DNA of 27,330 bases from positions 1 to 27,330 of the IMG/VR virus record IMGVR_UViG_3300014158_000007; one strand, written 5' to 3'. A program made the translations under genes and the position numbers. Shown one piece after another: positions 8,162 through 15,502 of this stretch; positions within the stretch are counted from its first letter, which is position 1, and every line of letters begins with the position of its first letter. The stretch comes from a virus. Taxonomy: Duplodnaviria; Caudoviricetes. The notes under the pieces are model-generated. The model was not told the origin of the DNA, made no database searches, and saw only the letters and a program-made list of their open reading frames with translations.

Positions 8162-9247
8162 CTAGACGGAGGCGAGAAGCTTAGCAACCGCGTCGGCGCT
8201 ACCGTCTATCGCGGGCGCGAGCTTAGCAGAAGCGGCTTCGAACCATTTTGCTGCGGCTTCGCTGCCGACACGCGGGCGAAGCAAGTCAACAGCCTTCGCC
8301 TTCATGGCGTCACCCGTGCCGAAATTTGCCGACACAAACCGCGCCATGTCTTGGTTACCGTCACTACCGCGTGCCGTTCGCTCGTGATCCACAAAGCGGG
8401 TGACCGCGTTTAGGGCGCACCATTGTGTGCCCGCGGGCGTGCCTTCCTGCACCGTATGCTTGTACGCCGCGCCAAGTTCTTGGAATTGATTGAGCTTATA
8501 CGTGCTGATATCCTCCGGCTTCGCTTCAAACGGGATATCCAGTACCTCTTTAAAAAAGAGCGATACATGCTCTTTCGGCATCTCGTGCGAAGCCATCGCG
8601 TCGCCCATCTCCTTGAACCTGTCGAATTGCTGCGCAAGATCGGCAAGCTCCCGTGCAACCCGATCCGCATCATAAGCGCTGCGATGCGTGCTGCGGACTG
8701 TAGGTGTCTTTTCGCCAACGGCGGCTTTCAGAGTATTGTCGCAAATTGCACGCGTCATGCATGTTTTAGTGATTGACGCAGCCGTTGTGTCAAAGCTAGT
8801 CGTGGCAAGCAAATATGCTTTATGCTTGTCACCACCTACGGTCATGTCACCGTTGAACTTTGCAGTAATCCAGATATGCGAGCCGCCCGCATAGTAACCT
8901 GCTGCATCGAATTGAAAACGGCTATCAACGCCAATATACCGTTCCATAAGCTCAAAAAATTCCCGCGGCTGATGTACCTTGTACTGCGGCGTAGCGTCGC
9001 CAAGGATGTAGCCATTGTCATTCCGGGCGAGGAATACTTTGTCTGGAACGGGCACATATACACCGTTTACAAGCGCATAAGCCGGCACCTTGACGGCTTC
9101 CCAAGGCAGGCCGGATTGCTCAATCCATTGATCCATTGTTTGCCCGGCTTTCATGGCATTGCCTAGGCGATGCCATATCGAATTGCGGTCTCCGGCGAAC
9201 GCAAGTTGCGCTTTGCCAGCTGCGTAATCCTGTACGATTTCACCCAT
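8162..9247 (-). CDS. DUF932 / TIGR03299-like phage-plasmid protein
   Basis: WHRLG, YLLATTSFD, RAICDNTL and WCALNAVTRFVDH motifs; start moved to ATG 9247 behind GGAG. Confidence 0.88.
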   Translation of the reverse strand: MGEIVQDYAAGKAQLAFAGDRNSIWHRLGNAMKAGQTMDQWIEQSGLPWEAVKVPAYALVNGVYVPVPDKVFLARNDNGYILGDATPQYKVHQPREFFELMERYIGVDSRFQFDAAGYYAGGSHIWITAKFNGDMTVGGDKHKAYLLATTSFDTTAASITKTCMTRAICDNTLKAAVGEKTPTVRSTHRSAYDADRVARELADLAQQFDRFKEMGDAMASHEMPKEHVSLFFKEVLDIPFEAKPEDISTYKLNQFQELGAAYKHTVQEGTPAGTQWCALNAVTRFVDHERTARGSDGNQDMARFVSANFGTGDAMKAKAVDLLRPRVGSEAAAKWFEAASAKLAPAIDGSADAVAKLLASV

Positions 9248-9282
9248 GACGATATCTCCAATGGGCAGAATTGCCCATGCAT

Positions 9283-9311
9283 GTTGTAATCCTGCAAGGG
9301 ACGAATAGCAA
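9283..9311 (-). promoter_or_regulatory. Putative sigma70-type promoter for the leftward early operon
   Basis: TTGCTA-N17-TACAAC on the minus strand, about 35 nt upstream of the DUF932 start. Confidence 0.45.
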
Positions 9312-9488
9312 CAGGTCATACAGGTTTTGTGTGATTTATGTTTAAGATATAGTGTCACACATAAACGTGTTTAGCTGTACCATATGCCGTTAATAAAGGT
9401 TTATCACTATAAAAACGATAGTGTGGTCATACAGTTTTTTCAAAAAGTGTCATAGAGTGGCACTATTGAAAACTGCCGGTTTCACTCA

Positions 9489-9843
9489 TTTTGCCCGCGC
9501 TCGCCCCTTGATTGGGCAGGGGAATTATAGACACGTGCACAAGCGTCAAAAATTTTCACATAGAGACCGATAATCCATTTCTCTATTAGTTAATTTTTTG
9601 ATTTTTGTTAAAGACTAGGTGTTATACACATATTGTTACGCGAGTGTAAAAGACTTATACTTTCACACCCTTATACCCGAAAGTAACATAGTTTTCTAGA
9701 GTAAAATTTTACCTCTCCAGGGTCTATACTTGTAGTACATATGTATGACGGGGTATCATTCTAACTTTTTCTGTCGATTTTTTTGCCGCTTGTGCACGTG
9801 ACGGTGAAACCGCTGCATTTTCAAAGCTCGACCGCGGGCAAAA
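9489..9843. repeat. Nested inverted repeats centred on 9666 in an AT-rich noncoding region
   Basis: 9489-9503 vs 9829-9843 (14/15) and 9532-9552 vs 9780-9800 (20/21); same symmetry axis. Confidence 0.85.
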
Positions 9844-10055
9844 CATGCCGAAAGCACAATCTGAAAATCAGGCAGTCTATGTGACAGTAGACCAAATCAT
9901 GTAAAATGGGTATCACAGGTTGAATAATTTTCAATACAACTTTTTCAGGGTGTATAAGATTATTGGTTAAAATTATGTACCATTATGGGATTACAACTGT
10001 GATAGGGTTGCACCGTCGAATTATCTAATGATTACAGATCTCGTTGAAGCCTAGG

Positions 10056-10135
10056 GTTGTACCGTTCTACCGTGCCAGGGTGCCACCGTGCCACCATTAA
10101 AAGTGCCCCCCGGTACCATGGACAGACGTGCCACC
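10056..10135. repeat. Degenerate octamer repeats (GTGCCACC)
   Basis: Tandem GTTGTACC GTTCTACC GTGCCAGG GTGCCACC GTGCCACC (10056-10095), plus copies at 10103 and 10128. Confidence 0.65.
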
Positions 10136-10187: not shown

Positions 10188-10202
10188 TTAAGGTTCTGTT
10201 AA
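10188..10202. promoter_or_regulatory. CtrA-type binding box
   Basis: Perfect TTAA-GGTTCTG-TTAA, about 22 nt upstream of the tRNA-like element. Confidence 0.55.
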
Positions 10203-10224
10203 GGTCTAACGGTGAAACTCCTCC

Positions 10225-10326
10225 ATCGCCGTAGCTCAAAAAGGATTAGAGCAGGGAGCTAGGGGGCCGTACCATACGCACCCCGAAACCCCCAGGTTGC
10301 TGGTTCAAGCCCAGCCGGCGAAGACC
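10225..10326 (+). ncRNA. tRNA-like RNA with hairpin-expanded anticodon loop
   Basis: Acceptor TCGCCG/CGGCGA, U8A9, D arm GCTC-AAAAAGGATTA-GAGC, anticodon stem GGGAG/CCCCC around a 30-nt segment, variable loop AGGTT, T arm GCTGG-TTCAAGC-CCAGC. Confidence 0.8.
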
Positions 10327-10388
10327 GCAGTTGATTACTTTACAAGGCATTTTGGCCCCGTAAGGGCTCTTTTGCCTCATAAATTACT

Positions 10389-10465
10389 CAGGGCGTAGCT
10401 CAGCCTGGTAGAGCTTCTGGCCTGGGCCCAGAAGGTCGCAGGTTCAAATCCTGCCGCCCCGACCA
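10389..10465 (+). tRNA. tRNA-Pro(TGG)
   Basis: 77-nt cloverleaf with C1:G72, A73, encoded CCA and anticodon stem TCTGG/CCAGA around loop CC-TGG-GC. Confidence 0.93.
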
Positions 10466-10468
10466 AAC

Positions 10469-10500
10469 TTTTCGCTTGACAATGCCAACGCAGAGGAGTA
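10469..10500 (+). promoter_or_regulatory. 32-bp direct repeat copy 1, sigma70-like promoter
   Basis: TTTTCGCTTGACAATGCCAACGCAGAGGAGTA; TTGACA-N17-TACCAC. Confidence 0.7.
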
Positions 10501-10507
10501 CCACTAG

Positions 10508-10683
10508 CCAGGTAGAGAGGAAGGCCGGCTGGAACGCTCTTGCCTTCATCACCCGCGTGCGGCAGATGCTGCTGGCGTCGGGGTGAAGACATGGCCTCCA
10601 GAACGCTAACGTACTCCCTCACTACAGCATACCCGGGCACCGGGTTGGATCGTAGGCCAATACCGGACCCGGTTTTCTTTTTT
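10508..10683 (+). ncRNA. Candidate structured small RNA (about 170 nt) ending in a hairpin plus U-tract
   Basis: Nested stems 10512-20/10617-25, 10522-26/10593-97, 10544-50/10582-88 and 10559-63/10568-72; 3' hairpin 10633-10672 followed by a T-run; lies behind a promoter. Confidence 0.55.
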
Positions 10684-10711
10684 CGCTTGACAATGCCAAC
10701 GCAGAGGAGTA
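10680..10711 (+). promoter_or_regulatory. 32-bp direct repeat copy 2, sigma70-like promoter
   Basis: Identical to 10469-10500; TTGACA-N17-TAAGAG, just upstream of the ORF at 10725. Confidence 0.7.
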
Positions 10712-12680: not shown

Positions 12681-13436
12681 ATGTTCGTAATAGACACCGC
12701 AGAAGACCTGAGCAATAAAGCCGACAGCATCAAGAAGATGGGTGCCACTGGCATCATGCGGTATTTTAACCCTCTCAGCAACGGCCACGACAGCGGTAAA
12801 TCCCTGACCACTGCTGAGGCTAAGCGGTGGGCCGAAGTAGGGCTCCCTGTCGGGGTCGTTGTTGAGGGTTACGGTCTGGCCAACGGTACCGGGGTCGATG
12901 GGCCGTCAGGCTCCCGCGATGCACGGGAGGTCTTGCAGTGGTTGCCCTCTGTTGGCCTTACACAAATACCTGTAGTTTGGTTCGCAGTAGATACGGATGC
13001 CTCTGCCGACCAGATCAATCACAACGAAGTGGAGTATTTCGACGCGATAAAGTCGGCGTTCAACGCCGCGCCGTTTAGCTCGCGGCCGCAAATTGGTATT
13101 TATGGTTCGGGCTGGTCTTGCATGAGTATGGTTGGAACCAAGCGTGCCGACAAGGCATGGGTTGCCGGCTCCCCAGGCTGGTCGCATTACAAAGATTACG
13201 TGGCCGCAAACGGTTGGACCCTCTTACAGAAGATATATCCCGGTGAAAAGTGGAACGGGTTACCGGCCGACACTGACACCGTGAACCCGAAACTCACACT
13301 GGCCGGTGCTGGACTAATTATCCCCTTCGCCTCGGCGCAGTTGCCGGCATGGAATGCGCCGTCCACGCCAGCAAAGCCGGGTATTCCCACCGGTACTGCA
13401 TCTCCTAGCTTGTGGTCTCGGTTCTGGAATGCATAA
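12681..13436 (+). CDS. DUF1906 / GH25-like TIM-barrel peptidoglycan hydrolase (probable endolysin)
   Basis: IDT...IMRY...KSLTTAEA...VWFAVDTD...YF...IGIYGSG...LLQ...DTD pattern; AGGAG SD. Confidence 0.8.
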   Translation: MFVIDTAEDLSNKADSIKKMGATGIMRYFNPLSNGHDSGKSLTTAEAKRWAEVGLPVGVVVEGYGLANGTGVDGPSGSRDAREVLQWLPSVGLTQIPVVWFAVDTDASADQINHNEVEYFDAIKSAFNAAPFSSRPQIGIYGSGWSCMSMVGTKRADKAWVAGSPGWSHYKDYVAANGWTLLQKIYPGEKWNGLPADTDTVNPKLTLAGAGLIIPFASAQLPAWNAPSTPAKPGIPTGTASPSLWSRFWNA

Positions 13437-13845: not shown

Positions 13846-14208
13846 ATGTTGAACAAAGATATTTTGCGTACCGCATATGCCTACTTGAACGAGACAGAGC
13901 CATTCGTGAAATGGAATTTACCAGACGCAGATGATGTAGATTTTTCGGTGAAGGATAGCAAGAAACACGCTGCTAAATGCCATCCTCCTGAATGTACTCA
14001 GTCCGGGAGGTATCTGATTGAAGTTGCTGAACGGCACCATGAGGGCACTTTGAATTTGATGGAAACTATGGCTCATGAAATGGTTCATATTCATGAGTTT
14101 CAAGCCTGTATTCCACGAACTAATGGAAAACATCTTCATGGTAAAGTGTTTAAGGCTTATGCTAAACAGGTATGTGAGGCTCATGGGTTTGACATAGCTC
14201 AGTTCTAA
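13846..14208 (+). CDS. SprT-like zinc metalloprotease-domain protein (start uncertain)
   Basis: TMAHEMVH (HExxH) plus HGKVFK. Confidence 0.8.
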   Translation: MLNKDILRTAYAYLNETEPFVKWNLPDADDVDFSVKDSKKHAAKCHPPECTQSGRYLIEVAERHHEGTLNLMETMAHEMVHIHEFQACIPRTNGKHLHGKVFKAYAKQVCEAHGFDIAQF

Positions 14209-14962: not shown

Positions 14963-15502
14963 ATGGATTTATCAGTTTTAGTTGTTCGTGCTGCTGACGA
15001 GGGAATGCCAATAGCAGCCCTTAAGCGGGTGTTCAATAATACTCCTGATGGTGAACCACTTCCCATCCGCAACATCCTTCACGATGCTGTGACACATGGG
15101 CGCCTGGTTCAGATGCCTGCGGAAGACTGGCCTGTGAATACCCGTCGAGAAGATCGGGTCCCCACAATCCCTGTGCACGAGCTTCGAGAAGATGAAGCCG
15201 GCCTGCTGATGAAACTTGCTCGGGTATTCCGTACAACCCGTCTTGAAAGTAGCATTCTGCTGGTTGTCCTTCGCCGGCACTTCGCCACGCGAGAGATGCT
15301 TCACGATGCCGTTGAGGCTAACCGTGGAAACCCGGACGAACCTACGGACAAGAAGATTGTAGATGTGGTAGTGTGTAAGTTGCGTAAGAAATTAACCCCA
15401 AAAGGGCTAAATTTACACACAGTTCACTCGCAAGGGTATGAAATGAGTGAGATTGACAGACAGAAAGCCTGGGACCTAGTGCGGGAAGCATTTCCATCAT
15501 GA
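14963..15502 (+). CDS. OmpR/PhoB-type winged-helix protein with CtrA-like DNA-binding domain and no receiver domain
   Basis: DEPTDKKIVDVVVCKLRKKL...LHTVHSQGY resembles CtrA DEPELKIIDVFICKLRKKL...IETVWGRGY (recalled). Confidence 0.85.
   Translation: MDLSVLVVRAADEGMPIAALKRVFNNTPDGEPLPIRNILHDAVTHGRLVQMPAEDWPVNTRREDRVPTIPVHELREDEAGLLMKLARVFRTTRLESSILLVVLRRHFATREMLHDAVEANRGNPDEPTDKKIVDVVVCKLRKKLTPKGLNLHTVHSQGYEMSEIDRQKAWDLVREAFPS

Follow-up and report, generated by a model that had tools for sequence, protein, structure and literature searches.

The locus and its tRNA-shaped element

The window (the whole stretch of DNA analysed here, 27,330 bases) is an entire virus record, 42% complete according to CheckV, and carries DNA polymerase and large terminase genes together with genes for a portal-like protein and for tail fibres. 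When terminases are compared, its nearest cultured counterparts are Rhizobium phages (e.g. RHph_TM27A, 50% identity). Because TTAA-N7-TTAA sites are enriched in the loci of terminase relatives (see below), we infer that the host is an alphaproteobacterium.

At the border of a non-coding gap that separates divergent gene blocks, a gene was found on the plus strand (10225..10323) for a tRNA-shaped RNA whose body is of class I. Numbering of its positions by script agrees with the first-pass annotation, which had described an intact D arm, T arm, D-loop GG, A15:U48 contact and acceptor, and places the end of the gene at 10323 instead of the 10326 given there. The acceptor stem (10225-10231/10316-10322) has pairs 2-7 intact and an unpaired A1·A72. 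G73 (10323) is followed by ACC, so that CCA is not encoded; the 1:72 mismatch and the missing CCA had both been recognised previously. The D stem (10234-10237/10249-10252) encloses an 11-nt, A-rich D loop with GG, the variable region is 5 nt long and the T arm occupies 10299-10315. The tertiary contacts of a tRNA (U8:A14, A15:U48, U54:A58 and A21) are all present. The element therefore has the acceptor, D and T arms and the tertiary contacts of a canonical tRNA, A1·A72 excepted, but not its 7-nt anticodon loop, which is replaced by 30 nt (10259-10288) reading CTA, a 23-nt insert and GAAA.

The extended anticodon arm (10254..10293, plus strand) is made up of a 5-bp stem (10254-10258/10289-10293) with an A30·C40 mismatch, an internal loop (CUA/GAAA) and the insert hairpin (10262..10284, plus strand), which consists of a 4-bp G-C stem, a 2x2 loop, a second 4-bp stem and a 3-nt loop. 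In the predicted fold the insert stems have pair probabilities of 0.77-0.99, which bears out the earlier proposal of a hairpin grafted into the anticodon loop; the mismatch in the anticodon stem had been overlooked, and the pairs of that stem reach only 0.30-0.44. The cloverleaf has a predicted energy of -36.7 kcal/mol, a competing fold that opens the D arm lies 0.2 kcal/mol lower, and the folding z-score is modest by itself (-1.6 to -2.4).

Standard tools miss the element altogether. ARAGORN and Rfam, run on the window, called the neighbouring tRNA-Pro alone, and no Rfam family matched the element above its gathering threshold, as the first-pass annotation had anticipated in not recognising a family. 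A contig from a second sequencing run (X3) spans 10219-10411 with 0 differences to the window, which argues against an assembly error; runs X5-X8 contained no contig covering the element. A scan for tRNA shapes in 78 related loci (969 kb) returned five ordinary tRNAs and no long-loop match, so the shape of the element is no common chance result.

Downstream, on the same strand, a terminator-like hairpin (10345..10377, core 10354-10368) stands between the element and an ordinary tRNA-Pro(TGG) (10389..10465). Terminator-like sites here are within chance, with one seen against a shuffle mean of 2.0. The tRNA-Pro has C33 and an A2·C71 mismatch. C33, which is likewise found in the tRNA-Pro of a related phage (L314), may be one of those changes in the anticodon loop that have been linked to escape from nucleases.

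Upstream lies a TTAA-N7-TTAA box (10188..10202, plus strand); the AACGGT motif behind it (10208-10213) is probably a -10 element. This arrangement is the CtrA consensus, and binding of CtrA to such phage sites is reported in the available part of PMC9437464. A lone box in the window is within chance (33/100 shuffles). Across the 78 terminase-relative loci, by comparison, 65 boxes (48 distinct contexts) were counted, where five shuffles gave 3-7 and other spacings (5, 6, 8 and 9) yielded only 4-12 sites. Two complete phages (L314 and L318; terminase 80-81% identity) carry the box and AACGGT at the equivalent place. Conservation of the box was read from the loci individually, as MAFFT did not align the boxes in register. 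The box noted ahead of the element in the first pass is thus confirmed, and its distribution in these sequences indicates that it belongs to the phage group and not to the element RNA.

Several other features were observed in the window. A plus-strand gene (14963-15502) encodes a protein of 179 aa whose DNA-binding domain is of the OmpR type (PF00486, E 9.5e-07) and which is kept in relatives at 45-65%. This protein may bind the CtrA-type boxes of the phage group, CtrA itself being a member of the same OmpR-type family. The non-coding gap contains a 64-nt inverted repeat (9489-9552 and 9780-9843) and short tandem repeats (10003-10093), the latter resembling short repeats that adjoin the tRNA cluster of the relative described below; the repeats of the gap probably mark a genome end or replication origin. 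A search for relatives of the neighbouring protein (8162-9358) found none.

A homologue in one relative and an exchangeable slot

A search pattern was built from the T arm of the element, the end of its D stem and both ends of its anticodon stem. In all of IMG/VR the pattern had one match (L126:2981-3078), and in the JGI metagenomes it had two, one being the contig of the window itself and the other a long-armed element unrelated to it. The record holding the IMG/VR match (G001) is 29% complete, and its terminase and portal are 64% and 70% identical to those of the window. Since a terminase search found 383 relatives among 2.9 million contigs, and the lone pattern match falls in a relative of this kind, coincidence is unlikely. 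In G001 the neighbours of the homologue are tRNA-Thr on one side and tRNA-Asn on the other, and the cluster as a whole is inverted with respect to the packaging genes.

A closer comparison of the two RNAs reveals that they also share features lying outside the search pattern: A1·A72, G73, the lack of CCA, G31-C39, C32, an internal loop of the form UA-G...C-GAAA and an insert of 23 nt. Among the pair cells of the two sequences 45/46 are standard, the sole unpaired cell being A30·C40 of the window. Six of the 23 pairs are changed on both sides (four in the acceptor, one in the insert and one in the T stem), although with two sequences and one comparison as much covariation arose in 7/500 shuffles. 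At the 15:48 contact, the window has A:U and the homologue G:C. An 8-bp acceptor stem (C-1:G73) was considered for the element and dropped, the homologue having G at -1.

The arm of the homologue has a fully paired anticodon stem and reads CAGUA/GAAA where the window reads CUA/GAAA. By sequence, AGUA opposite GAA is complete in the homologue, and the window has UA/GA alone. AGUA opposite GAA is what we take to be a loop E/sarcin-ricin-type bulged-G motif. The sarcin-ricin loop proper, described in the accessible part of PMC2896532 as a GAGA tetraloop next to a bulged G, was rejected for both RNAs, which do not contain the tetraloop. The insert length and its proximal stem are kept in the homologue; the apical sequence differs, as does the apical fold. 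With its apical letters not conserved, the insert appears to matter more for its shape than for its letters.

The element is thus real, and its shape is conserved in a single distant relative. The homologue is no ordinary tRNA lacking the insert, and the compensation seen in its acceptor, T and insert stems, together with the switch at 15:48, favours the original suggestion of a tRNA mimic over random decay. However, the family has only two members and its covariation amounts to one comparison, in which separately arisen tRNA bodies would look compensated too.

Further members were sought with a model (R1) trained on the element and its homologue, which score 115 bits by construction. No third member was found in 178 sources, where the next best match reached 57.6 bits. 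The best 80 of the 383 terminase relatives were kept, and 50 of their records plus G001 were searched whole. Among these 51 records, R1 found an element-type RNA in G001 only and no third member; it is absent from the remaining 50, and from 14/14 relatives at least 90% complete. The one match among these complete relatives, in G006, proved to be its tRNA-Met. RHph_TM27A contains no tRNA by ARAGORN and no R1 match, and tRNAs are absent from the examined flanks of 20 DNA-polymerase relatives. BLASTN of the element or the homologue gave short tRNA-arm matches alone in cultured phages and nothing in plasmids. A further search returned 13 matches, which comprise the known homologue, locus L144 and a remainder of intron tRNAs or chance matches. 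Although L144 agrees with the UA/GAAA pattern, it was not accepted, as direct pairing of its 5' linker is possible (4 central pairs). When 182 ordinary tRNA bodies were compared as possible parents, Lys and Asn bodies scored best (66.5), the homologue scoring higher (75).

The place of the element in the genome is variable. A contig from another run (X2) joins 10224 to 10389, so that the element and the terminator-like hairpin are missing as a unit; this is a modest observation from one contig of depth 6.5, with 37 letters on the short side and 80% likeness. In L314, a tRNA-Met occupies the place behind the box where the window has the element. The presence of the box in relatives without the element, and of tRNA-Met behind it in L314, suggests that the RNA is an exchangeable passenger, and these sequence comparisons indicate an accessory gene. 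Beyond the tRNA-Pro, perfect 32-nt direct repeats with TTGACA (10469-10711) flank a 211-bp cassette, which the X2 strain does not have. The cassette holds a hairpin (10530-10600, z -2.1) and a terminator-like end, and is possibly a small RNA cassette; loosely similar hairpins are found near the tRNAs of L314 and L318.

Resemblance to known tRNA-like RNAs

The nearest counterparts are RNA1 and RNA2 of phage T5, annotated as 'tRNA-like stable RNA with unknown functions' (NC_005859.1:30501-30644 and 32959-33083). Like the element, they are phage genes within tRNA clusters, and in their predicted folds a long irregular hairpin takes the place of the anticodon arm, next to acceptor, D and T arms. 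Unlike the element, which has 99 nt and a 5-nt variable region, they are 144 and 125 nt long with an extra variable-arm hairpin. At E 1e-4, R1 matched three ordinary tRNAs of T5 and neither RNA1 nor RNA2. As judged from sequence and predicted folds, the element resembles the T5 RNAs without detectable homology. The first-pass view that it belongs to no named family holds for Rfam, but tRNA-bodied RNAs with extended anticodon arms have long been annotated in T5.

The species 1 and 2 RNAs of T4 (rnaC and rnaD) are also small stable RNAs, encoded where a phage tRNA cluster ends, and rnaC has a T-arm-like hairpin in its predicted fold. They differ in that neither has a full cloverleaf in the predicted folds, and neither was matched by R1. 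They are late RNAs whose function is left unexplained, and whose Northern validation is reported, in the part of PMC9697503 available. In T4 rnaC (L408, 909-1047), AGUA and GAA flank a small hairpin, in an imperfect register that may be due to chance.

YrlA Y RNAs (RF02553) are non-coding tRNA mimics of bacteria and phages, but YrlA adjoins Ro60/Rsr and has the T and D arms in another order, according to the available part of PMC4201824. YrlA was rejected here, scoring 20.4 bits against a gathering threshold of 69 in a weak match that spans two neighbouring tRNA shapes. No TROVE gene was found in the element's own contig (0/1), in five relatives (0/5, four of them complete) or among 20 flanking proteins. 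A C4-type antisense RNA was likewise rejected, with no Rfam C4 match and a longest antisense match of 10 nt, both genomes being partial. Among artificial RNAs, the engineered tRNA scaffold also keeps acceptor, D and T arms and has its anticodon stem-loop replaced by a hairpin; being artificial, it shows only processability and stability in E. coli (PMC3753655, in part). A description of this RNA family was not found in the literature searched. Taken together, the element is probably a non-decoding tRNA mimic, a variant of long-known and unexplained phage tRNA-like RNAs.

Possible functions and alternatives

The observations on which an interpretation can be built are a tRNA body, a 23-nt hairpin replacing its anticodon loop, the same shape in one relative and a slot behind the box in which the gene is present or absent. 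We consider it probable that the element is a maintained non-decoding RNA. Our preferred, if tentative, explanation goes further: this tRNA-shaped RNA, likely non-decoding and processed by the host, may act as a decoy that engages a tRNA-binding or tRNA-cleaving protein of the host. Taken by itself, the decoy step is a more doubtful possibility.

Transcription would start from the CtrA-type promoter. RNase P would cleave at A1 and the 3' end would be trimmed, as for engineered tRNA scaffolds with anticodon inserts, so that the host's tRNA-processing enzymes are predicted to cut out a stable RNA. According to the accessible part of PMC3753655, E. coli factors recognise a tRNA scaffold in which the anticodon stem-loop serves as insertion site. 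Aminoacylation would be poor or absent given the lack of an anticodon, A1·A72, the lack of G3·U70 and the lack of a long variable arm. In the last and weakest step, a tRNA-targeting defence protein would recognise the elbow and stems, and the stacked UA/GA or AGUA/GAA segment would offer it no cleavable anticodon loop, so that the enzyme would be tied up. A decoy was chosen as the purpose because the elbow, stems and internal loop are conserved and the apical letters are not, and because the gene occupies an interchangeable slot next to ordinary tRNAs and phages are confronted with defences that cleave tRNAs. PARIS is one such defence (PMC11455837, in part).

Several points weigh against this explanation. 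The counter to PARIS described in the available part of PMC11455837 is a cleavage-resistant working tRNA and not a decoy RNA. The copy in the window gives an impression of relaxation (the A30·C40 mismatch, loss of AG from AGUA and a D loop of 11 nt that is rich in A), its anticodon stem is poorly supported in the predicted fold next to a near-equal structure with an open D arm, and the element is absent from all of the complete relatives and from all but one of the records searched.

Much of this would equally suit the main rival to the decoy, a decaying relic, i.e. a non-decoding RNA that is intact in the relative and is losing its function here or was never strongly selected. The A30·C40 mismatch, the truncated AGUA motif, the enlarged D loop, the competing fold and the loss of the whole module both in the close X2 strain and in the 14 complete relatives are all in keeping with it, and partial decay of the window copy is possible. 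However, acceptor pairs 2-7 and the D and T stems are fully paired although 4/6 acceptor pairs differ from the homologue, the 15:48 contact is changed on both sides and the insert length is kept, whereas random decay should have produced more than a single mismatch. We regard a relic as rather unlikely. If it is one, the element is one more of many long-armed viral tRNA shapes without a usable anticodon side. Long-armed tRNA shapes are common in viral contigs, with no fewer than 120 loci (about 690 estimated), and among the loci listed 42/84 distinct arms had no usable anticodon side.

The tRNA body might instead merely stabilise the RNA, with the extended arm serving as an aptamer for one specific protein of phage or host that is unrelated to tRNA defence. 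The conserved features that are not those of a tRNA are the internal loop and the insert length, as this would predict, and engineered tRNA scaffolds display protein-binding hairpins in the same manner (PMC3753655, in part). Against it, the apical sequence and fold differ between the element and the homologue, no antisense match exceeds 10 nt in either partial genome, and no neighbouring gene common to both loci was found as a candidate partner; such a carrier is decidedly unlikely. A processing or insulating spacer, which would supply RNase P and 3' cleavage sites or tune tRNA-Pro through the terminator-like hairpin, would suit an element that stands first behind a promoter-like box and is lost together with the hairpin in X2, but it is very unlikely, as the flanking tRNA-Thr and tRNA-Asn of the relative bring their own sites and a spacer has no need of the conserved arm.

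The first-pass annotation had also offered a tiny noncanonical intron, whereby the 23 nt would be spliced out to leave a working tRNA with anticodon AGA, AGG or CGA depending on the cut. Enigmatic tRNA introns have been predicted computationally in Lak phages (PMC6784885, in part), and these, like the 37/38-intron tRNAs of archaea and giant viruses, have a short anticodon-loop insert often ending in GAAA. The insert is 23 nt in both the element and the homologue, and its excision from the window leaves a normal-looking 7-nt loop (Y32, U33, R37) in 6/8 registers. In the homologue, however, U33 results in 0/8 registers. A control scan of genome contigs recovered at least 120 loci (about 1500 estimated), nearly all archaeal intron tRNAs, and 117/120 distinct arms among the matches listed have YU...R37 on the 5' side. 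Three or more central-helix pairs of the 37/38 bulge-helix-bulge are present in 114/117 of these control introns, compared with two in the window and one in the homologue, so that neither RNA keeps the YU-anticodon-R37 and paired central helix of such tRNAs. An insert of 23 nt is too short for a self-splicing intron. A serine tRNA would fit poorly with A1·A72 and the short variable region, and no splicing endonuclease (PF01974) was found in the window contig, which is 42% complete. Failure of the bulge-helix-bulge test and of every excision to give U33 in the homologue makes a protein-spliced intron unlikely, and the intron is the most improbable of the explanations considered.

To return to the decoy, a bolder version would see a family of uncleavable phage tRNA decoys, with an A1·A72 class I body and a 23-nt loop-E-type arm, expressed first from a promoter under CtrA control and directed against the tRNA-targeting defence nucleases of alphaproteobacteria. 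This is unlikely on present evidence; if true, it would represent an RNA-only anti-defence factor and would suggest a function for the tRNA-like RNAs of T5 and T4. The 99-nt element and its homologue form a natural variant pair (CUA/GAAA versus the full AGUA/GAA), accompanied by strains with and without the gene, and the element is small enough to be synthesised and tested directly for processing, charging and protection from tRNA-cleaving defences.

Other unusual tRNA shapes were observed during the searches. At L127:2981-3085, a tRNA-shaped gene stands alone, with an extended anticodon arm that is helical throughout (z -2.5), on a contig unrelated to the window and with no ordinary tRNA nearby; being a long-armed shape of another kind, this gene was rejected as a member of the family. 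G001 (L312) contains two further tRNA-shaped elements, both with a body that looks Glu-like by eye and both missed by ARAGORN, one with a 65-nt anticodon-loop insert (13288-13417), the other combining a D loop of 42 nt with an anticodon loop of 8 nt (13927-14033). Low-scoring tRNA genes (33-40 bits) are present in three relatives (G019:33254-33327 and 33410-33483; G020:1263-1336 and 1419-1492; G042:31240-31313), and these have in common with the element at 13927 of G001 a C-rich stretch of the anticodon loop that ends in CTCAG. The CTCAG-loop genes are possibly a second mimic family or an extended-anticodon tRNA.
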